Source: Thermoplasmata archaeon
GTDB taxonomy: Archaea > Thermoplasmatota > Thermoplasmata > Thermoplasmatales > ARK-15
Assembly (NCBI GenBank): GCA_038880255.1
Contig: JAVZSA010000001.1
Location: 788-64,787, forward strand
Length of the DNA: 64,000 bases
Direction: 5' to 3'
In this document: one piece after another, positions 12,144 through 51,540 of the stretch
Layout of the letters: every line of letters starts with the position of its first letter
Position numbering within the stretch: the stretch's first letter is position 1
Made by a program: the position numbers and the translations under genes
Notes under the pieces: model-generated
Told to the model about the DNA's origin: nothing
The model's database searches: none
Seen by the model: the letters and a program-made list of their open reading frames with translations, nothing else

Positions 12144-13921
12144 AGGAATTACTCACATCACCAGACATTCATTCCTGGATAAGTGCAAATTCCCAATTCA
12201 TAGTAGGTTCCTTTGTAAAAAAAATTGCACTGGATCAAGTTTTAGTTATAAGGCTACACAATAAGGAGTTTGGCAACAGGGATTTATACCTAGATAGAGA
12301 AGGCCTCATATATTTTGGTGAAAAAAAAGAAATGGAAATTAAAGGAATTTCTAAATTTCTTATGGAAGAATTTGAAAATTTAAAGATAGAATCAATAGAA
12401 CAACCCAATTTTGATAGAATAGTCAAAATAAACTTTTTTGGTAGGAAAAGCATAGTATTTGAAATGTTTGGGAAAGGAAATATAATCTTTACAAAGGAAA
12501 ACAAAATAATTTTTGCCCTTGAGTACAAAGAATGGAAAACAAGGAAGATAAAAAAAGATGAAGAATATGTTTTACCACCTTCACCAATTAATCCCTTAAA
12601 AATGGATTACGAATCATTTTCAAAATCCTTTGAGGGTAGTAAAGATATAGTTGTATTTCTTGCAACAAAATTTAATTTGAGTCATTATGCTGAACATATT
12701 TGTTCAACTTTGAATATACCAAAGGAAAAAAAGATCTATGAGTTAAATGAAGAAGAAAAAACTTCCATATTTGAGGCAATTAAAAAATTTTTATTTTCAA
12801 TAGATGGAAAAGGTTATTTTTGCAATGGAAAAATAATGTGCATTAAAATTGGTGAATGTGAAGAGTTCCAAAATATTAATGATGCAATTTTAAGATTTTT
12901 AGAAGGAAAAATAGAGGAAAATGAGGAAAAAAGAATTGAAAAGGAACAGAGAAAAAAACTTGAAGAATACAAAGAAAAAGCGTTGGAGTATAGAAAAATT
13001 GCCGATGAAATTATTGGAAAAATAGATTTATACAATTCAATCTTTGATAAATTAAGAAGAAAAGAGAAGATAAATGAATTAATCTCTATTGATGGTAAGA
13101 TTGCAAAGATAAAAATAGATGAAAATTCGCCAATATTGGAAGTTGATTTTACCAAAAAGCCAAGTGAAATTGCCCAATTTTATTATTCTGAAGCAAAAAA
13201 GCTTGAGGAAAAAATCAATAGTATAATTAACATCGTAGGGAAAATAAAAAAGAAAAAAGTGGAGGAAAAAAAGGTAATTGAAAGAAAAAGGTTCTGGTTT
13301 GAAAAATATAGATGGTTTATTTCTTCAGAAGGAATACTTGTTTTAGCTGGAAGAGATGCAAAAACAAATGAGGAGGTGGTGAAAAAATATCTTGGTGAGA
13401 AGGATTATTATGTTCATGCTGATGTTCATGGTGCACCAAGTGTTGTTGTAAAGGATACAAAGGTTTCTGAAAAAACATTAATTGAAGCAGGTATATTTGG
13501 GCTTTGTCATTCAAAGGTTTGGAGTTCAGGTTATTTGGTAGGTGATGCATATTGGGTAACATTTTCACAGGTAAGTAAGATGGCAGAAAGTGGTGAATAT
13601 GTAGCAAAAGGTGCTTGGGTGATTAGAGGAAAAAGAAATTATATGAGAAATTTGAAGCTTGAAATTGGTGTTGGAAAAATAAAATATGAAAATGTTGATT
13701 TATTAATGGCAGGACCTATTGATGCAATTAAAAGTAAAACATCTAAATATTTGGTAATAATTCCAGGAGAAACTAAAAAGGAAGAACTGGCAAAGATCAT
13801 TTCTGAAAAATTTAACTGGCCCTTGGATGATGTGATGGCAATACTTCCACCAGGTTCAGGTAAAATAATGGAGGATAAAAATGAAGAGACCGTTGAGCAT
13901 AGTAATAACTGTGAAAAATGA
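12140..13921 (+). CDS. NFACT-family protein (RqcH/Rqc2/FbpA homologue, ribosome quality control)
   Basis: NFACT-N-like N-terminus, a long coiled coil and a DUF814/NFACT-R block ([15 protein letters not shown]). Confidence 0.75.
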
Positions 13922-42346: not shown

Positions 42347-42955
42347 TTATTTAGAATAAAGATGGCACGCAACCCAATGATCACCTTTTATATTTAACAA
42401 TTCAGGTTCCTCTTTTCTGCACTTTTCAAATGCATATGGACATCTTGGGTGAAACCTGCATCCTGTGGGTATTTCCATAGGGTTTGGTATTTCTCCTTTA
42501 ATATTTACCTCTTTTTCCTTCTTTCCTAAGGTGGGTATTGCATCCATAAGTGCCCTTGTATAGGGATGAAGAGGATTATTTATTATTTCATCCTTTTTTC
42601 CTTCTTCCATTAATTTACCTAAATAAAGTACACTAATTTTATTCCCAACGTAGGATGCAACGGATATATCATGTGTAATCATAAGCATAGATACTTGATA
42701 TTTTCTATTCATTTCTTTCATAAGATTTAGAAAATTTGCTCTTATAGAAACATCGAGCATTGAAACAGGTTCATCAGCTACAATAAATTCAGGTGAAATC
42801 CCAAGAGCCCTTGCAATTGCTACTCTCTGTCTTTGACCACCTGAAAGCTGGTGGGGATACCTATTTAAAAAATCTTGAGCTGGTTTTAAACCAATATCCT
42901 CCATTACCCTTAAAATCCTATCATCATCAAATTTAATTTTTATTAATTTAATCAA
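42347..42955 (-). pseudogene. 5'-truncated oligopeptide/dipeptide ABC transporter ATP-binding gene (OppF/DppF-like remnant)
   Basis: It retains the signature LSGGQRQR, Walker B IVADEPVSMLD, the H-loop ITHD and the C-terminal oligopeptide-type extension (CRFHPRCP). It has no Walker A or Q-loop region. Only ~50 bp separate it from the divergent gene, and there are no permease or binding-protein partners. Confidence 0.7.
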
Positions 42956-44078: not shown

Positions 44079-45194
44079 TTGGTGAAATTTGATACAAAAT
44101 TTTTAAGAATAATAATTGCTTGGTTAATAACATTTCCAGAAATATTCATTAGACTTGTTTTTAGTGTTACAATAATTCCAATAAAGGAATCATTAAATAT
44201 TAATTATTTTTTTGCCTCACTCCTTTTATCTTCCTTTTATATAGGTTATGCATTATTTAATTTACCCATGGGACACTTTGTGGATAAATATGGATACAGG
44301 GTGATATCTGCATCCCTTATATTTTTAGGCATTTTTTCAATAATTTTTTCATTTTCAAAGAATTATTATATATCACTTTTTTCAATGTTTATGTTGGGAG
44401 TATTTTCTGCACCTACATATATAGGATCCATTAAAATTGTTTCAGAAAAAGAAAAAAAGTTTAGGGCCACTGCAATAAGTCTTTTAAATACTGCAGGCCC
44501 TTCTTCACTTTTAATCACTAATATTTTTTTGACTGGGAATTTATCCTTAATAGATTGGAGATCAGTTTATGTTTATATTTCAATAGTTGCATTTGTAATG
44601 TCCATCCCTCTTTTTTTTATTAAAAAATTTGATGAAAAAAATGTAAAAAATGCAATAAATAAAAAGTCAATACTCGCTGCATTTGTAAGATTTTCAGGAT
44701 TTTGGGGTATGTGGGGTATCTCTACCTATTTGTTTTTATTATCTCATTTAGAGTTTAACCTTAGTTATATATATTCAGGTTTAGTCTCAGCCATTTTTTC
44801 ATTAGGTGCAATCCTATCCATTCCAATTTCAGGTATAATATCTGATATTTTTAAAAATAGGAAAGGTGTATCTTCAATCTATTTAATCTTATTTTTTATT
44901 CTTTTGATACTATTCCCATTTATTGGACCATACTTTATGTTTCCAATATCATTTATATTGGGTTTTATTTCATTTGGGTATAGGACACCTTTAGATGCAT
45001 TCATTTCTGAAATTACAAAGGGAAAGGAAGCAACTTCAATGGGTTTGGCAAATCTTATTTCACAACCAAGTCTTATAATCGTTCCAGCAATTATAGGAGC
45101 TATAATCACTTATACAGGCAATATTTTTCTTTCATTCATTACACTTTCAATTGGCCCACTTGTGGCTTTTATAATTTTAAGAATAATAGATTAG
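44079..45194 (+). CDS. MFS-type transporter
   Basis: 371 aa, about 10-12 TM segments, and an MFS-like loop motif (GHFVDKYGYR). Confidence 0.65.
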   Translation: MVKFDTKFLRIIIAWLITFPEIFIRLVFSVTIIPIKESLNINYFFASLLLSSFYIGYALFNLPMGHFVDKYGYRVISASLIFLGIFSIIFSFSKNYYISLFSMFMLGVFSAPTYIGSIKIVSEKEKKFRATAISLLNTAGPSSLLITNIFLTGNLSLIDWRSVYVYISIVAFVMSIPLFFIKKFDEKNVKNAINKKSILAAFVRFSGFWGMWGISTYLFLLSHLEFNLSYIYSGLVSAIFSLGAILSIPISGIISDIFKNRKGVSSIYLILFFILLILFPFIGPYFMFPISFILGFISFGYRTPLDAFISEITKGKEATSMGLANLISQPSLIIVPAIIGAIITYTGNIFLSFITLSIGPLVAFIILRIID

Positions 45195-46069
45195 TCTAAA
45201 AATTTTTTTACACTTTCAGAAATTTCAATAATTGCTTTAGTTGCAATTGATTTGGGATTAAACAACACTAAAGGTTTTTTATATGCAAGCGATTTTGAAA
45301 CATTTTCGTCGTAGGGAATTTCCCCTAATATTTCAATATTATTTTCACTTGCAAATTTTTTAATTCCATCAAATCCTGGATTTATATTACTCTTATTCAA
45401 AATTATATAGGATTTTATTCTAAAATGATAAGTGAGGGAAAAAATCCTTGAAAGATCACTCAGGCTGGATTCTGTTGGTTCTGCTACCAATATTGCATAA
45501 TTTGCACCACTTACTGAGGCTATTACTTGACATCCTATTCCCGCCGCTGAATCAACTATAAGATTTTTTACCTTTCCATCTCTTATCCACTCTCTTGCAA
45601 TCTTTTTTTCTTCTGTAACCAGTTTACCACTATTTGGCTGACCCACCTCAAGTTCAGAGGTAATAAGAGGTCCATACTTCGTACTTGAAATTCTGATCCA
45701 TCCTGAATGCTGATCTTTTATTATTTCAATAGCCTTTTTTGGGCAAACTACTTTACAGGCTCCACATCCTTCACATACATAATCCCTTATCTTCAACAAA
45801 CTATCGTGATAAATTGCTTCATATGAGCAATTTTTTTCACAGATTAAACACATATCACATTTGGAATAATTTACCACTGCAACACTTTTATTTCTATAAT
45901 CAATCTCCTTTTCCCAGTTATTTATGTCAAATATTAAATGCAGATTTGGTGCTTCAGCATCAGCATCAACTATCCCTATTTTTTTGTCACTTAAAATTAC
46001 TGATAATGATGAGGATATAGTACTTTTTCCTACTCCTCCTTTCCCACTTGCCACCACTATTTCCGCCAT
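45191..46069 (-). CDS. MinD/ParA-superfamily P-loop ATPase with inserted 2x[4Fe-4S] ferredoxin domain (COG1149-type)
   Basis: Deviant Walker A SGKGGVGKST, with inserted CDMCLICEKNC and CEGCGACKVVCP motifs. Confidence 0.8.
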   Translation of the reverse strand: MAEIVVASGKGGVGKSTISSSLSVILSDKKIGIVDADAEAPNLHLIFDINNWEKEIDYRNKSVAVVNYSKCDMCLICEKNCSYEAIYHDSLLKIRDYVCEGCGACKVVCPKKAIEIIKDQHSGWIRISSTKYGPLITSELEVGQPNSGKLVTEEKKIAREWIRDGKVKNLIVDSAAGIGCQVIASVSGANYAILVAEPTESSLSDLSRIFSLTYHFRIKSYIILNKSNINPGFDGIKKFASENNIEILGEIPYDENVSKSLAYKKPLVLFNPKSIATKAIIEISESVKKFLD

Positions 46070-46911
46070 AATAAATGCACCACCTTATTTGAAATATCTG
46101 AGAAAATCCTTGATTCATCACTTTCCGGGAACATTTTCACTACTGGAATACCACTTATATAACTTTTTAATATTTTATCGCTTACCTGTATTTTTCCTAT
46201 AAATTCAACCCCATTTACATTGGGAATTTCATCCACAATGTTATATCTATTCATTATGCCATATCCAATTTTGTTTTGTTTCTTTAAAAGATCAAAAATT
46301 TTTTTAAGATCGTGCAAACCTAAAGGTGTTGGTTCTGTTACTACAATTACAAGATCTGAGTCTTCAATTGCTGCTGCCACATGGTTTCCAGTTCCGGATG
46401 ATGTATCAAAAATTAAAATATCGTGGGAGATCTCAAAAGCCCTTTTTTTTGTAGAAAGTACAAGAGGATAGGATCTTTCCTCTCCTTCGTTGAGTATACC
46501 GGAAACGAGTGTAAAATTTTCATTAACTTTTGTTACATAAGTATGACCTATGATTTTTTTATCCTCCTTTACTGCCCCAACTGGACATACAAACTTACAG
46601 GTTTTACATCCAGTACATAAAGTAGGCATTAGAAATGGATAACCATTACTAAATAATATTATTGCATTTTCTGAACAGTTTTTGGCGCACAAAGAACATT
46701 TTATACATTTTTCATAATCAAATTTTGGCTTAAATATGTGTTCCTCTCTTTCGTTATCTAGTTTTGCAGAGAGTAATATATGATCATTTGGGCATTCCAC
46801 ATCCACATCCGCCAAAACGACATTAAATTTTTTTGAAAGTTCCCAGGCTAAATTAACAGCGACGGTACTTTTTCCCGTTCCACCTTTTCCTCCAGTTACA
46901 GTAAAAATCAT
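46057..46911 (-). CDS. MinD/ParA-superfamily P-loop ATPase with inserted 2x[4Fe-4S] ferredoxin domain (COG1149-type), paralogue
   Basis: Deviant Walker A GGKGGTGKST, with inserted CIKCSLCAKNC and CTGCKTCKFVCP motifs. There is a 13-nt overlap with the downstream paralogue. Confidence 0.8.
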   Translation of the reverse strand: MIFTVTGGKGGTGKSTVAVNLAWELSKKFNVVLADVDVECPNDHILLSAKLDNEREEHIFKPKFDYEKCIKCSLCAKNCSENAIILFSNGYPFLMPTLCTGCKTCKFVCPVGAVKEDKKIIGHTYVTKVNENFTLVSGILNEGEERSYPLVLSTKKRAFEISHDILIFDTSSGTGNHVAAAIEDSDLVIVVTEPTPLGLHDLKKIFDLLKKQNKIGYGIMNRYNIVDEIPNVNGVEFIGKIQVSDKILKSYISGIPVVKMFPESDESRIFSDISNKVVHLLWRK

Positions 46912-46917
46912 ACAGGG

Positions 46918-47322
46918 TCAATAGGGACCAAATCTCCCACGATGTCCGAATCCTCTGCCCATTCCAGGACCTCTCATTCCTGTAGCCGGGGGTAATTTTC
47001 CTTCAAAAAACATTTTAATTGATTCTTCAACAGTGATTGCGGGGCTTTCTCTCATATCAATACCATTCATTGAAAGTACTTGAAAAGAGTTTGGGCCTAT
47101 TGAGCCAGCAATTACCACATTACATTTTTCATTAATTATCAATTGTGCAGCTTGAATTCCTGCACCACTCCCAGCAAATGAACCTGGATTTTGAATTATA
47201 CTTACATTTTTAATTTCTTCTTTTTCCGCATCCACTATTGTAAATGTAGGGCATCTTCCAAACTGTAAACTAACAAAATCTTTCAAACCTCCAGTACCTG
47301 AAGTAGCAAAACATATTCTCAT
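46918..47322 (-). CDS. NifX/NifB-C-terminal-like (dinitrogenase FeMo-cofactor-binding fold, COG1433-type) protein with Gly/Arg-rich tail
   Basis: MRICFATSG...HFGRCP-like FGRCPTFTIVD...AGSGAGIQAAQLI...VIAGSIGPN. The C-terminal tail is GMRGPGMGRGFGHRGRFGPY. The start is placed at MRICF. The ORF-track start is 47370. Confidence 0.7.
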   Translation of the reverse strand: MRICFATSGTGGLKDFVSLQFGRCPTFTIVDAEKEEIKNVSIIQNPGSFAGSGAGIQAAQLIINEKCNVVIAGSIGPNSFQVLSMNGIDMRESPAITVEESIKMFFEGKLPPATGMRGPGMGRGFGHRGRFGPY

Positions 47323-47373
47323 TTGAAACACCAAAAAAGAAAATGAATTAAAATATTTTAGGTTTACCAAAAA

Positions 47374-47655
47374 TTACTTTTTCAGTTGATCAAGTCTCCT
47401 TTTTACATCTTCAAGTCTTTCCTGGAGATATTTGTATTCATTTTCTAATGCCTCCTTCTCATCATATGTTTCTGGATTAAATCTTTGCCAAGGACTGTAA
47501 TACCACCAATAGCCAGGATAGTTATAACCATATGGTGTATATGTTCCGTAATATGGATAATTTAGCCATCTTGCACCTCTTGGAAGACCAGTCCATGGGC
47601 AATAGCCTAATGTTGCTCCCCAACCTTTTCCTCTACCACCAAACCAACCCAACAT
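47374..47655 (-). CDS. DUF5320-like small protein (Gly/Trp/Tyr/Pro-rich N-half, coiled-coil C-half)
   Basis: MLGWFGGRGKGWGATLGYCPWTGLPRG, then a Tyr/Trp/Pro-rich stretch, then EKEALENEYKYLQERLEDVKRRLDQLKK. This matches the remembered DUF5320 layout, and the protein sits first in the COG1433/COG1149 cluster. Confidence 0.55.
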   Translation of the reverse strand: MLGWFGGRGKGWGATLGYCPWTGLPRGARWLNYPYYGTYTPYGYNYPGYWWYYSPWQRFNPETYDEKEALENEYKYLQERLEDVKRRLDQLKK

Positions 47656-47739
47656 ATCTAATCACCTTATTACTCAAATGTGTAAAAATATATAAATTTT
47701 TTGTCATTCTTATACATTAAAATTTTTAACAAATTTATA

Positions 47740-49242
47740 TTAGATTTTATATTTATAAATCAAAGTTTTACATAATTCTAAATTTTTTCTCGCATTTTCA
47801 AAATCTTTGTCCAAAGAAATTGCACTTTCATATTGTTTTATCGCCTGTTCAAGAAAATTTTTCCTTTTTTTCTTATCCTTTTCAATTAATGCCATTTTTC
47901 TATAGCAGTCCCCCATCCCAGCATATGAATATTTTAGTGATGGATTTAAAGATATAGATTCCTCATACTTTTTGATTGCCTTCTCTAAAAATTCCATTTT
48001 TTTATTTAAATTATTTTCAATATTGGCTAAGTCTAGTAATCTATTTCCCATATTATGATATGGAAATGAAAATAGTGGATCATATGAAATGGATTTGTCA
48101 ATTTCTTCAATCGATTTATAAATGTACATTTTTTTCTTTTCTTTGTTTTTAATATTTTTACTCATAAGTGCATAACAAATTGAGAGACCATTATATGATA
48201 AGGAATATTTACTATTTATTGATAAAGCATTTTCAAAATTTTTAATAGCATTTTTTAAATATTTATCCCTTTTTTCATTGTCACTCTCTATTTTATATAG
48301 ATCAATGAATACATTTCCAATACCATTATACGCATGAATAAACTCCCCATCAGTTTTTATACATTTTTCAAATTCTTCTAATGAAATTTTCAAGAATTCA
48401 ACTTTTTCATCTTTATTGACAGTAATTCTTGACATTTCTAAATATCCTTCAGCCTTTCCATTATGCAGATATGTATTAAGAGGATCAAGATTAAGACCCA
48501 AATTAAAATAATCTAGAGCCTTTTTAATTAAATCAATCTTTTTGTCTTTACCACTTTTATTTTTAAAAATTTCTAAATAGGCATTTCCAAGTCCTACATA
48601 ATTTTCAACAATTCTTTCATCCATTTTCATTGATTTTTCATACTCTTTAATTGCCATTTCAATATTCTTTAATCTTTCATTTTCGTTCCTATTGAATCTT
48701 GATAGTATCAAGTACACGTTACCTTTGCCATTATGTGCTAGAGGATCATCATAAAATTGTATTAATAAATCATATTCTTGCAAAGCATTCAAAAGAAGAA
48801 TATTTTTTGAATTTAAACTAAATTCAAGTTTTGACAGTTCATAGTAACAATTACCTTTACCATAAATAGCAATCCTAATTTTTGGATCTATTTCACATAC
48901 ATCTGAAAAAATTTTCAGTGCATTTTCAAAAAATTCTTTCCTTTTTTCTATTTCATTTTCAAGAAGACCGAATTGATATAGACATTCGCCCTTTCCTGAA
49001 TACAATAATGGAAAATCCTTATTTAAAGAAATACCATTCTCAAATTCTTTTAAGGCTAAATCTAATAAACCTTTTTTTCTAATTCTATTATTCTCAATCT
49101 TTACTTCTTTTAATAAAATGACTCCTTTTAAATAATTGGAGAAATAAAGTTCATTATTTATGGCTAGTGAATTGTTCAATTCTTTTAAAGCACTTTCTAA
49201 CAATTCTTTTTTCTTACCTAAAGAAATTACACTTTTTTCCAA
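47740..49242 (-). CDS. TPR-repeat protein (fragment 4 of a split NTPase-TPR gene, TTG start)
   Basis: Many TPR-like repeats (..Y.GKG.CY...G....A...F..A..I.P..). The reading frame stays open 54 nt upstream of the called TTG start and overlaps the end of the preceding ORF. Confidence 0.7.
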   Translation of the reverse strand: MEKSVISLGKKKELLESALKELNNSLAINNELYFSNYLKGVILLKEVKIENNRIRKKGLLDLALKEFENGISLNKDFPLLYSGKGECLYQFGLLENEIEKRKEFFENALKIFSDVCEIDPKIRIAIYGKGNCYYELSKLEFSLNSKNILLLNALQEYDLLIQFYDDPLAHNGKGNVYLILSRFNRNENERLKNIEMAIKEYEKSMKMDERIVENYVGLGNAYLEIFKNKSGKDKKIDLIKKALDYFNLGLNLDPLNTYLHNGKAEGYLEMSRITVNKDEKVEFLKISLEEFEKCIKTDGEFIHAYNGIGNVFIDLYKIESDNEKRDKYLKNAIKNFENALSINSKYSLSYNGLSICYALMSKNIKNKEKKKMYIYKSIEEIDKSISYDPLFSFPYHNMGNRLLDLANIENNLNKKMEFLEKAIKKYEESISLNPSLKYSYAGMGDCYRKMALIEKDKKKRKNFLEQAIKQYESAISLDKDFENARKNLELCKTLIYKYKI

Positions 49243-49253
49243 TTCATATATTG

Positions 49254-50105
49254 CTATTGCCTTAAGTATGTATGAATCAAAGAATATGTGATTTTTTCAA
49301 TTGAAATATCAAATTCTTTTATTGCATTTTCAAAATCCCCTTTTTCCAAATGATTAGCACCAGCAAAAAAATGGTAAAATTCATCATCATTACTTGAGAC
49401 TGAATTATTTATATATTCAAGAATTTTTAAATTTGTATTCTCCATTAAATTTAATTTATGAAGGGAATTGAAATAAGAAATTATTATTTTTCCTTCTGGT
49501 GATTCTCTACCATACTCCTTAAAAATGAACGGAATAGAATAGAAATTTTTATCATTTAAAGACATTAATAATGGAGTGTAAGCATAACTTCCTTTTCCCT
49601 TTTCTTTTAATAATGCTAGAGGTGTGAGATAAGAATAAATATATTCAAGGCTAGGTAAAATTTTGGGAAGAAGTTTTAATGAACTAACACCATTGGTAAT
49701 TAGAGTATACCAAATAACAAGGTTAATGTTATCTTTAAAGTATGGAATTTCCATATTATTAATTAAATTTTTTACATAGGATTTTGCTTCCTGAGCTATT
49801 TCATTAATATATGATACGAAATTCTGAAATTCTAAAATATTTTTTTTCAATTCTTCTGAAATTTCTTGTGGAATTATATATTCACCATCAATTTTTTCAA
49901 AAATTGATGTATCAATATTAAAATTTTTAATTATAATTTCATCAATTGGAAATTTAGTACCAATGTATATAATAAGTAAATTTATTTTATTATATTTATT
50001 TAGTATATGTTCAATATAATACTTTTTAGCATCTATTTCCAACAAATTAATTAATTCTGAAGGATTAATTTCTTCTAACATAATTGAAAAAGTCTTACAA
50101 AACAA
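49254..50105 (-). CDS. Hypothetical helical protein (fragment 3 of split gene)
   Basis: The frame is open upstream of the called TTG start as far as 50297, overlapping the stop of the preceding ORF. The C-terminal residues (GANHLEKGDFENAIKEFDISIEK) already look TPR-like. Confidence 0.6.
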   Translation of the reverse strand: MFCKTFSIMLEEINPSELINLLEIDAKKYYIEHILNKYNKINLLIIYIGTKFPIDEIIIKNFNIDTSIFEKIDGEYIIPQEISEELKKNILEFQNFVSYINEIAQEAKSYVKNLINNMEIPYFKDNINLVIWYTLITNGVSSLKLLPKILPSLEYIYSYLTPLALLKEKGKGSYAYTPLLMSLNDKNFYSIPFIFKEYGRESPEGKIIISYFNSLHKLNLMENTNLKILEYINNSVSSNDDEFYHFFAGANHLEKGDFENAIKEFDISIEKITYSLIHTYLRQ

Positions 50106-50281
50106 ATAAATTTCTGATATTGTATTAAAATGAAATTTATCTATAAATCCCCCTTCTTCAAATAAATTCCATTTTTCTTCAGGTAAAATTAACCTTAAAA
50201 ATTTTAAAATTAAATCTTTGGTATAATCTTGCCATTCAAAAAGAACTACATGATTCCCTGTACTGTTTAATAAATAAAATT

Positions 50282-50902
50282 TTATGGGTCCAAAAATTCA
50301 ATTAATTTTAAATTCAAATTATATGAAGAGTCAACAATTGAAATTAAATTAGGTATAGGATATTCAGGTATGTAATTTTTTGTAATTATTAAAGAATCTT
50401 GCATTAACCAATTCATAATACCTCTGTGTTTTTCTTTCAAAAAAATTGATTTTTTAAAATATTTCTTTAAAATTAAACTGATAAATATTATATTATCTAC
50501 TCTATTCTCAGATTTGAGAATTATTGTACCCTTTTGAAGAATATCCCATGATTTTTCAATGCTTGGGGCTATTAGATTATCAATATCTTCAATTAATTTT
50601 TCAAATAATGGTACATTACCTAATAAATTTATAGATTCATTAAAATTCAATTCCATAATGGAATTTTTTAAATTCATTGTTAAATTTTTGACAAAACTAT
50701 CAAGCTTTTCAAGAATAAAATCAAAGTTGTTAAGTGAATTTAGACAATCATAGACATTATTTCTATCAATTTTTAACTCTAAAGAAAATTGAGAAGACAA
50801 AATATGCTTATAATCATCAATCAAATTTTTCCAGTCTTTAATGAATTCTTTAAATTTTTCCCCATAATTTAAGCCATAATCATGATAAAATAAGAGGATC
50901 AA
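50282..50902 (-). CDS. Hypothetical helical protein (fragment 2 of split gene)
   Basis: The frame is open upstream of the called TTG start as far as 51013, overlapping the stop of the P-loop ORF. Confidence 0.6.
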   Translation of the reverse strand: MILLFYHDYGLNYGEKFKEFIKDWKNLIDDYKHILSSQFSLELKIDRNNVYDCLNSLNNFDFILEKLDSFVKNLTMNLKNSIMELNFNESINLLGNVPLFEKLIEDIDNLIAPSIEKSWDILQKGTIILKSENRVDNIIFISLILKKYFKKSIFLKEKHRGIMNWLMQDSLIITKNYIPEYPIPNLISIVDSSYNLNLKLIEFLDP

Positions 50903-50988
50903 TGAAATTAAAATTTTGTCACAATTTCTATTTGTTTTTAAATTTATTGCTGAAACAATATTCTTTAATTCTCTAATTTCAGAATCAT

Positions 50989-51540
50989 TTAAAAAGGAAT
51001 TGCATTTATAAATTCATTTGAATGGAGACCAAGATTCTGAAATTTTAAATAATCTACCAATTTATTATATATTTTCCTTTGTTTTTCAATTTCCAAATCA
51101 TCATATTCTAGTAGGCCAGGTAAAATATAGTTTATTCCCATCCATGATATAGTTATTTCTTTAAAATTATCACCCTTTATTGCATATATTAAACCCTTTT
51201 TTTTATTTATATTTTCAATTTGATTTAATAATTCTTCAGGAATCATTTTTATATCAAAATTACCGCTATTAACAAAATTTTTTATTTTAAAGATACTAAT
51301 ATTTTTTCCCGGATTTTTTATAATATCTTCAATATCCCTATCTTGATTTATTAAACCAAAAGTGAATTCATCTAAAGATAATTTCTTAAATTTTTTCTTA
51401 ATATCATTTATAAAATATGTTTTGCCGGATCTTGGGGGTCCTATTAAATATTTTATATGATATTTATTTATCAAATTTAAAAAATTATTCTGTTCAGAAA
51501 TTAGAATTCTTTTTAATTCCTCAATTTTCTCTAAATTCAT
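50989..51540 (-). CDS. P-loop NTPase domain protein (fragment 1 of split gene)
   Basis: Walker A GPPRSGKT follows an N-terminal helix. A candidate Walker B strand is GLIYAIKGD. Confidence 0.65.
   Translation of the reverse strand: MNLEKIEELKRILISEQNNFLNLINKYHIKYLIGPPRSGKTYFINDIKKKFKKLSLDEFTFGLINQDRDIEDIIKNPGKNISIFKIKNFVNSGNFDIKMIPEELLNQIENINKKKGLIYAIKGDNFKEITISWMGINYILPGLLEYDDLEIEKQRKIYNKLVDYLKFQNLGLHSNEFINAIPF

Follow-up and report, generated by a model that had tools for sequence, protein, structure and literature searches.

The 64,000-nucleotide stretch analyzed here (the window; positions 788 to 64,787 of contig JAVZSA010000001.1, assembly GCA_038880255.1, from an uncultured hot-spring Thermoplasmata archaeon) carries on its minus strand, between positions 47,740 and 51,540, four consecutive open reading frames (ORFs) which are the pieces of a single gene of about 1270 codons. 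What the window holds at this locus is very probably a young and still polymorphic pseudogene allele of that gene. The pieces are colinear with one uninterrupted homologue, and the disruptions that separate them are derived, shared (lesions b, c, d, and e by 17, 13, 3, and 10 loci, respectively, the window included), inherited across assemblies, confined to this gene and accompanied by relaxed constraint, as is typical of frameshift pseudogenes. All coordinates given below are window positions unless another locus is named.

A preliminary description of the same DNA, made from the sequence alone, had proposed one ancestral gene of this size split by three changes in the same direction, and had listed recent decay, local homopolymer miscalls and slippage-dependent or phase-variable expression as the options for its present state. 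Intact alleles in sibling strains and orthologues in other species bear out the proposal of a single gene, and recent decay is the option favored by the intact siblings, the nested lesions and the raised ratio of nonsynonymous to synonymous polymorphism (pN/pS).

Reconstruction of the gene

The ORF list of the window reproduces exactly the four ORFs of the preliminary description together with the TTG starts of the last three (Table 1). According to a stop-to-stop scan of the coding strand, each successive open frame is displaced by -1 relative to the preceding one and overlaps it by 24, 15, and 42 nt, respectively, within the zones 50989–51013, 50282–50297, and 49254–49296, which had been correctly delimited. 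The coding-strand runs to which the frame changes had been attributed (T5 at 50995–50991, T5 at 50296–50292, and A6 at 49297–49292) were also correctly placed, and the addition of one base to each of them fuses the frames into a stop-free product of 1267 amino acids (aa). The TTG starts of fragments 2 to 4 lie 11–180 nt past the preceding stop, and gene callers disagree on the length of these pieces (180 vs. 206, 275 vs. 283, and 487 vs. 500 aa). Stop-codon reassignment was considered as well and was ruled out, since the reading frame itself shifts and another stop comes up within 8 codons.

Uninterrupted versions of the gene occur in close relatives. A word-indexed search with the N-terminal 814 aa of the fused product retrieved one cluster, derived from "Thermoplasmata archaeon" metagenome-assembled genomes (MAGs), which together with the cluster of fragment 1 comprises about 80 member proteins from many MAGs; the members include two full-length proteins of 1270 aa (P0005 and P0015), forms of 1057 and 1031 aa and many fragments. 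Identical copies of the 183-aa product of fragment 1 are encoded on 42 contigs of the protein collection, and 10 such MAG loci were fetched. The sibling loci L002–L024 have in common the order gyrA-gyrB-methyltransferase-ABC permease, followed by the divergently transcribed gene under study and then by DUF5320-NifX-like-MinD/Fer4-MinD/Fer4, and in three of them (L012, L013, L022) the gene at this syntenic position is a single ORF of 1270 codons. A further sibling locus (L001) is about 99.6% identical to the window over the gene and its immediate flanks.

Orthologues from other species were found only by using the neighboring ABC permease as an anchor in the GTDB genome set. Two of them are syntenic single ORFs, one encoding 1270 aa with 47% identity to the fused product (L026) and the other 1279 aa with 36% identity (L031), while a partial orthologue (P0032), cut by the contig end, occurs in Aciduliprofundum sp. 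ARK-15 (L027/L025). An independent JGI metagenome contig (L106) carries an intact copy which is 99.2% identical to the L031 gene and belongs to the same species. The L026 ORF crosses a scaffold gap of Ns (14 X) and remains in frame. Synteny is kept in the orthologue loci (MinD-MinD-NifX-DUF5320-gene on one side, permease-methyltransferase-gyrB on the other), tblastn with the orthologues gives single high-scoring segment pairs that span all junctions (aa 1–1265 and 9–1267), and the orthologue alignment is gapless at all three junctions, the second and third of which lie in the conserved motifs E-x-Y-G-P-I/L and N/R-N-H-L/I-F. The preliminary description had looked to related genomes to decide between one ORF and four separately initiated genes; three of the sibling MAGs and two sister species carry single ORFs, and no relative examined has the four-gene arrangement.

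The broken gene has a GC content of 23% in a window of 31%. The orthologous genes are likewise GC-poor, by 6–7 points relative to their surroundings (0.32 vs. 0.385 for L026 6098–9910; 0.31 vs. 0.38 for L031 6085–9924), low GC thus being a trait of the family, and in the window gene no sign of decay or recent transfer. Outside these species little was retrieved. The word-indexed search, run with a single sequence and then with a four-sequence profile, returned the same-species cluster only, and an exhaustive HMMER search of 1.84e9 representative proteins returned only fragments of the protein itself and one orthologue fragment (P0032). No homologue appeared in the viral_contigs scan; of two metagenome scans the first gave none and the second a single locus, L106. 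More distant relatives (L028–L030, L034) keep permease-methyltransferase-gyrB and have no homologue of the gene within 10 kb. The gene is restricted to one small group of AT-rich Thermoplasmata that are related to Aciduliprofundum, and a range of only a few species is common for fast-evolving archaeal genes.

The lesions were called against the intact allele of L012 in a MAFFT alignment of 24 loci (the window region and its 23 siblings, L002–L024). The window allele differs from the intact one by three 1-nt deletions (b, c, and e) and one in-frame deletion of 9 nt (d), and it is because all three frameshifts are 1-nt deletions that they go in the same direction. The description of the junctions as homopolymer frame changes holds for one of the three: lesion e is the only genuine homopolymer contraction among the window frameshifts, and here both the predicted change and the restored peptide IEKNHIFF, within a TPR-like repeat as had been noted, turned out as foreseen. 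Lesion b shortens a run of three Ts and sits 3 nt upstream of the T5 run that had been blamed, so the T is missing from ATTTCC and the peptide at junction 1 reads NAISFLND instead of NAIPFLND. At junction 2 the T5 run exists because a lone A was lost by lesion c, at codon 417 and within the motif E-x-Y-G-P-I/L; the peptide is IEFYGPIKFY and not IEFFGPIKFY. The 9-nt deletion at 50133/50132 was absent from the preliminary reconstruction.

Table 1. Fragments, motifs and lesions of the broken gene in the window, with the other alleles and the haplotypes found among the 24 aligned loci.
Feature	Position	Strand	Description
Fragment 1	50989..51540	-	Open frame 51549–50989; called ORF 51540–50989 (183 aa); aa 1–183 of ancestral protein; real ATG; premature TAA made by lesion b
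Fragment 2 open frame	50282..51013	-	Called ORF 50902–50282 (TTG, 206 aa); about aa 184–421 of intact protein
Fragment 3 open frame	49254..50297	-	Called ORF 50105–49254 (TTG, 283 aa); about aa 417–765 of intact protein
Fragment 4 open frame	47740..49296	-	Called ORF 49242–47740 (TTG, 500 aa); most of TPR-like array and natural stop codon
Walker-A-like GPPRSGKT	51418..51441	-	aa 34–41, after predicted beta strand IKYLIG
C-terminal repeat array	47743..49375	-	Nine regular 45-residue TPR-like units and about 3 degenerate ones upstream
Lesion b (junction 1)	50998..50999	-	-T; AATTTCC -> AATTCC (T3 -> T2); in 17/23 loci covering the site
Lesion c (junction 2)	50292..50296	-	Lone A lost from TTTTATGG (TTTTAT -> TTTTT); in 13/21 loci covering the site
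Lesion d	50132..50133	-	In-frame 9-nt deletion TCAAAATTA between two AAATT direct repeats; removes S-K-L; window, L002, L011 only
Lesion e (junction 3)	49292..49297	-	A7 -> A6; within first TPR-like repeats (IEKNHIFF); in 10/20 loci covering the site
Allele a	~51078 (L012 5463)	-	+G (GG -> GGG); 8 loci
Allele a'		-	+A; L023
Allele f		-	+T (T8 -> T9); L024
Allele W133*			Nonsense; L023
Haplotype intact			L012, L013, L022
Haplotype b			L005, L008
Haplotype b+c			L003, L007
Haplotype b+c+e			L004, L006, L009, L010
Haplotype b+c+d+e			Window, L002, L011

Allele series and constraint in the population

Six alleles with a frameshift, one with a premature stop codon and one with an in-frame deletion were counted in the gene across the 24 near-identical loci. 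The window haplotype is the end point of a nested series (intact, b, b+c, b+c+e, b+c+d+e), which is the kind of series that stepwise decay predicts, and allele a is found on several haplotype backgrounds. Between 3 and 17 of the separately deposited MAG assemblies carry any given lesion of the window. In their flanking genes the intact alleles have a common and distinct background of single-nucleotide polymorphisms (SNPs); the alleles thus go with particular strains and did not arise as random errors. Allele b (-1) does not compensate for allele a (+1), since a stop codon is present 14 nt after a.

Insertions and deletions (indels) are concentrated in this gene: its 3.8 kb contain seven events, whereas the flanking coding DNA of the same 24 sequences contains none in 6.46 kb (Fisher p about 0.001), in agreement with the earlier remark that the neighboring genes are intact. 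The SNPs among the 24 loci point in the same direction, with 14 synonymous and 23 nonsynonymous changes in the gene vs. 44 and 16 in the flanks (Fisher p = 7e-4), corresponding to a rough pN/pS of about 0.37 and of about 0.1 or less, respectively (expected nonsynonymous fraction 0.815). Between species the protein is 36–47% identical, compared with 64–88% for the products of the neighboring genes, a two- to threefold faster evolution. The gene is thus weakly constrained, still intact elsewhere, and has recently lost its constraint in this population.

Several observations weigh against reading the locus as a simple case of decay. The intact L031 and L106 copies differ by 4 synonymous and 10 nonsynonymous changes and no indels, so the gene is weakly constrained even where it is intact and the raised pN/pS is not specific to broken alleles. 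Moreover, pN/pS is below 1 and the fragments are free of extra stops in their own frames, which implies that the decay is very recent and that some residual function of the fragments is possible. For alleles a and b, only 79 bp apart (L012 5463 and 5542), every one of the four possible combinations is found, and the same is true of b/c and c/e; the a/b combinations do not fit a simple decay tree and need recombination, recurrent mutation or mixing of strains in the assembler consensus. Finally, the alleles, that of the window included, were read from MAG consensus sequences. The sibling MAGs probably belong to a series from Tengchong hot springs, sequenced on Illumina HiSeq 4000 and assembled sample by sample with SPAdes (PMC11770067), and their GCA_0387/0388 accessions may belong to BioProject PRJNA544494.

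The SNP matrix as a whole is mosaic, which suggests either recombination between co-existing strains or assembler consensus mixing. Sibling MAG contigs often end in or beside the gene (L013, L018–L021, L024), L018 only 18 bp past lesion c, and scaffold L001/L017 has a gap of Ns at 12329–12428, with a duplicated gene end, just downstream of it. These contig ends and the gap fit the co-existence of several alleles within single samples.

The favored history is as follows. The ancestral product opens with about 180 aa of alpha/beta character that include a loop of AAA+ type, GPPxSGK[TS], continues with some 550 aa of mostly helical sequence and closes with about 12 TPR-like repeats. The window strain has gathered three ordinary spontaneous 1-nt deletions and one in-frame deletion of 9 nt; translation from the real ATG stops after 183 codons, and the downstream ORFs persist as out-of-frame remnants with fortuitous TTG starts, presumably without function. 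The hot-spring population holds intact, single-, double-, and triple-hit alleles besides other independent null alleles, on two or more co-existing strain backgrounds and probably shuffled by recombination. Under present conditions the gene is thus probably dispensable and in the course of being lost, we infer through relaxed selection, or possibly through selection for its loss. As to the role of the intact protein, the best guess is a scaffold or sensor that binds other proteins through its TPRs, and whose nucleotide-binding loop has already degenerated in part of the family.

The locus resembles the polymorphic frameshift pseudogenes of prokaryotic populations in that 1-nt indels disrupt a single ORF, intact and null alleles occur in one species, hits accumulate stepwise, pN/pS is raised and the neighbors are unaffected. 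It differs in coming from uncultured hot-spring Thermoplasmata, in being read from MAG consensus only, and in its mosaic allele combinations, in which the four-gamete condition is violated by sites 79 bp apart. In it the death of a gene can be observed in a natural population of an uncultured thermophilic archaeon, one species holding intact, one-, two-, and three-hit alleles, with the intact allele on a distinct, co-existing strain background; studies of recombination and loss rates at strain level could make use of it. In annotation, the four "hypothetical proteins" of this locus, and those of dozens of sibling MAGs, should be joined into a single entry marked as a pseudogene, with the intact 1270-aa P0005 as the reference form.

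Protein architecture and competing explanations

The fused protein is a TPR repeat protein in which only the C-terminal array of 45-aa period is solid. Pfam matches include TPR_11 (60.8 bits, cut-off 26.8; E = 9.6e-17), TPR_2 (28.9 bits, cut-off 27) and TPR_17 (26.5 bits, cut-off 24.4), and the motif G-x-G-N-x-Y recurs every 45 aa in P0005 (aa 853–1257). The long array of about 12 TPRs that had been proposed is therefore present, if the degenerate units are counted with the regular ones.

For the N-terminal part, the STAND/AAA+ architecture of Avs-type sensors, to which the preliminary description had assigned the protein, is not supported. At the Walker A position of the four-orthologue alignment the sequence reads GPPRSGKT in the window species, GPPISGKS in L026, HPPSAGIE in L031/L106, and YPPASGAE in P0032; only P35, P36, and G39 are invariant, and the motif GxxxxGK[ST] is kept in two of the four orthologue species, its lysine having been lost in the other two. 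No canonical Walker B (hhhhD[DE]) was seen by eye in this alignment, a reading made without a formal motif scan. Beyond TPRs, Pfam searches found nothing, whether in the fused protein at E<=1 (no NTPase family, no effector domain) or at E<=5 in the N-termini of four family members drawn from three species (no NTPase family). The N-terminal 770 aa or so have no NCBIfam match, PADLOC matched 0 families, and phmmer and profile searches of PDB sequences returned nothing better than E = 0.2. Single-sequence AlphaFold models are of too low confidence to be used (pLDDT 33 for aa 1–754 and 45 for aa 1–248); only the predicted secondary-structure order b1-loop-a1-b2-a2-b3-a3-b4 may hint at a P-loop-like domain, and Foldseek comparison of the low-confidence 248-aa model with the PDB found nothing with E<=0.001.

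Proteins of the STAND/AAA+ NTPase-TPR type (Avs, MalT-like regulators, Aravind-type NTPases with TPR-S) are like the family in layout (a GxxxxGK[ST] loop in an N-terminal alpha/beta region, then a long helical middle, then a C-terminal TPR-like array), in size (about 1270 aa) and in their fast evolution. The present protein departs from them in the lack of any NACHT, NB-ARC, AAA, or Avs match, in the partial loss of the Walker A lysine and in the absence of an effector domain or defense island. A STAND/Avs label is not supported, and the N-terminus is at most a nucleotide-binding-like domain that has degenerated, joined to a TPR scaffold.

These results bear on the possibility that loss of the gene is adaptive or balanced, the protein being a costly sensor (for instance, an abortive-infection-type NTPase-TPR immune protein) whose null alleles are repeatedly selected while fluctuating virus pressure keeps the intact one in a co-existing strain. 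Such a history is considered unlikely, even though at least seven independent null mutations in 24 near-identical genomes, of which three have the intact gene, are in its favor, together with the occurrence of intact and null alleles on different co-existing strain backgrounds, the faster evolution of the gene relative to its neighbors and a weak match, below threshold, with the "sensor" repeat TPR-S of Pfam (22.4 bits vs. a cut-off of 27.6). Against it, the protein has no PADLOC match and no recognizable effector or NTPase domain, and the genes around it (gyrase, ABC permease, Fe-S/MinD) are of the housekeeping kind and form no defense island. The number of indels is also close to the neutral expectation by a rough estimate (about 0.02 per site x 3.8 kb x an indel:substitution ratio of about 0.1, or about 7), and most lesions are second or third hits on an already dead allele.

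A more specific variant, rated a shade less probable still, would make the protein a clade-restricted NTPase-like/TPR sensor with functional and null alleles held as a balanced polymorphism, e.g., by a virus-driven trade-off, with some null sites, such as a and b, arising or reverting recurrently. If true, a large archaeal sensor gene would be cycling between on and off alleles in nature.

A sequencing or assembly artefact, in which the gene would be truly intact and the three missing bases would be consensus errors in an AT-rich stretch of low complexity, is unlikely, and very little weight is given to it. The composition of the gene (23% GC, 28 runs of at least 6 nt), the A7/A6 length difference at one lesion and the frequent breaks of sibling MAG contigs within the gene would be in keeping with such errors. 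However, two of the three lesions are not changes in homopolymer length; identical lesions, and identical combinations of them (window = L002 = L011), recur in separately deposited assemblies; assemblies deposited alongside, in the adjacent GCA/JAV accession series, recover the intact allele; and the alleles co-vary with the flanking SNP backgrounds. Homopolymer runs number 69 in the flanks vs. 71 in the gene for those of at least 5 nt, 21 vs. 28 for at least 6 nt, and 9 vs. 9 for at least 7 nt; none of the flank runs varies and the flanking coding DNA is free of indels, compared with two variable runs in the gene. The invariance of these 69 flank runs and the presence of the same alleles in many separate MAG assemblies speak against the local homopolymer miscalls that had been offered as an option. 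An intergenic poly-A tract downstream of the gene (window 47688–47703; L012 8851) is polymorphic among siblings (A6/A7); no other indel lies outside the gene in the first 10.5 kb or so of the alignment, over which most loci are represented.

Recoding or phase variation would produce the full-length protein through ribosomal or transcriptional -1 slippage at U or A runs, or restore the gene by reversible slipped-strand switching. Programmed slippage is unlikely, and recoding and phase variation taken together are regarded as highly improbable. All three shifts are -1, and each overlap zone contains a run where a single P-site tRNA could re-pair (CCU UUU UAA; GAA AAA AUC). The locus resembles genes with programmed -1 frameshifting or transcriptional slippage (dnaX, IS transposases), whose consecutive ORFs overlap in the -1 frame at U- or A-runs. 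Here, however, the frameshift sites and the two-frame layout are not conserved, the orthologues of two species and three sibling MAGs having plain ORFs; none of the sites has an X XXY YYZ heptamer; and each full-length protein would require three independent low-efficiency slips, the efficiencies of which multiply. The other null alleles (+G, +A, +T, W133*) are incompatible with slippage as well.

Contingency loci, such as those of Neisseria, Haemophilus, and Campylobacter, are comparable in that 1-nt length changes switch a gene off, one of them here at A7, and that several on/off genotypes exist; the a/b four-gamete violation could moreover reflect recurrent mutation. Known contingency tracts are typically 7–8 nt or more. 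The lesions of the present gene lie at T3, a unique A, A7, G2, A3, and T8 rather than in one long tract, and the mutated tracts of 2–3 nt or a unique base, which account for most of them, are too short for slipped-strand switching, while the nine flank runs of at least 7 nt never vary. With up to three hits stacked per allele, a single slip cannot restore the gene. The slippage or phase-variable option of the preliminary description is set aside for the same reasons (non-conserved sites, short tracts, three slips needed), and for the field of recoding and phase variation the locus brings no new mechanism but an ordinary phenomenon.

Gene fission, by which the four pieces would now be separate functional proteins (e.g., fragment 4 as a stand-alone TPR protein), is just as improbable: each fragment's own frame is free of secondary stops and gene callers annotate separate coding sequences in many MAGs, but the split state varies among near-identical genomes, the downstream pieces have only caller-dependent TTG starts and no relative has separately initiated genes.

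Neighboring genes

The genes next to the pseudogene encode gyrase, a methyltransferase, an ABC permease, DUF5320, a NifX-like protein and MinD/Fer4 proteins, and are housekeeping rather than defense genes. Directly downstream and on the same strand (45191–47655, minus strand) lie those for DUF5320, the NifX-like protein (Nitro_FeMo-Co) and two MinD/ParA-type ATPases with 4Fe-4S ferredoxin domains. This cluster is linked to the gene in all three species having it. In relatives without the gene, the 10 kb upstream of the permease do not contain the cluster.

Farther along the window, a TTG ORF of 202 aa (42347–42955, minus strand), located about 50 bp from a divergent HxlR gene, matches only positions 82–136 of the 137 of the ABC_tran profile and, in addition, oligo_HPY; the same 202-aa call is made in sibling L022. 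Judged from these profile matches, it may be an OppD/F-type ABC ATPase without its Walker A half, a possible second gene remnant.

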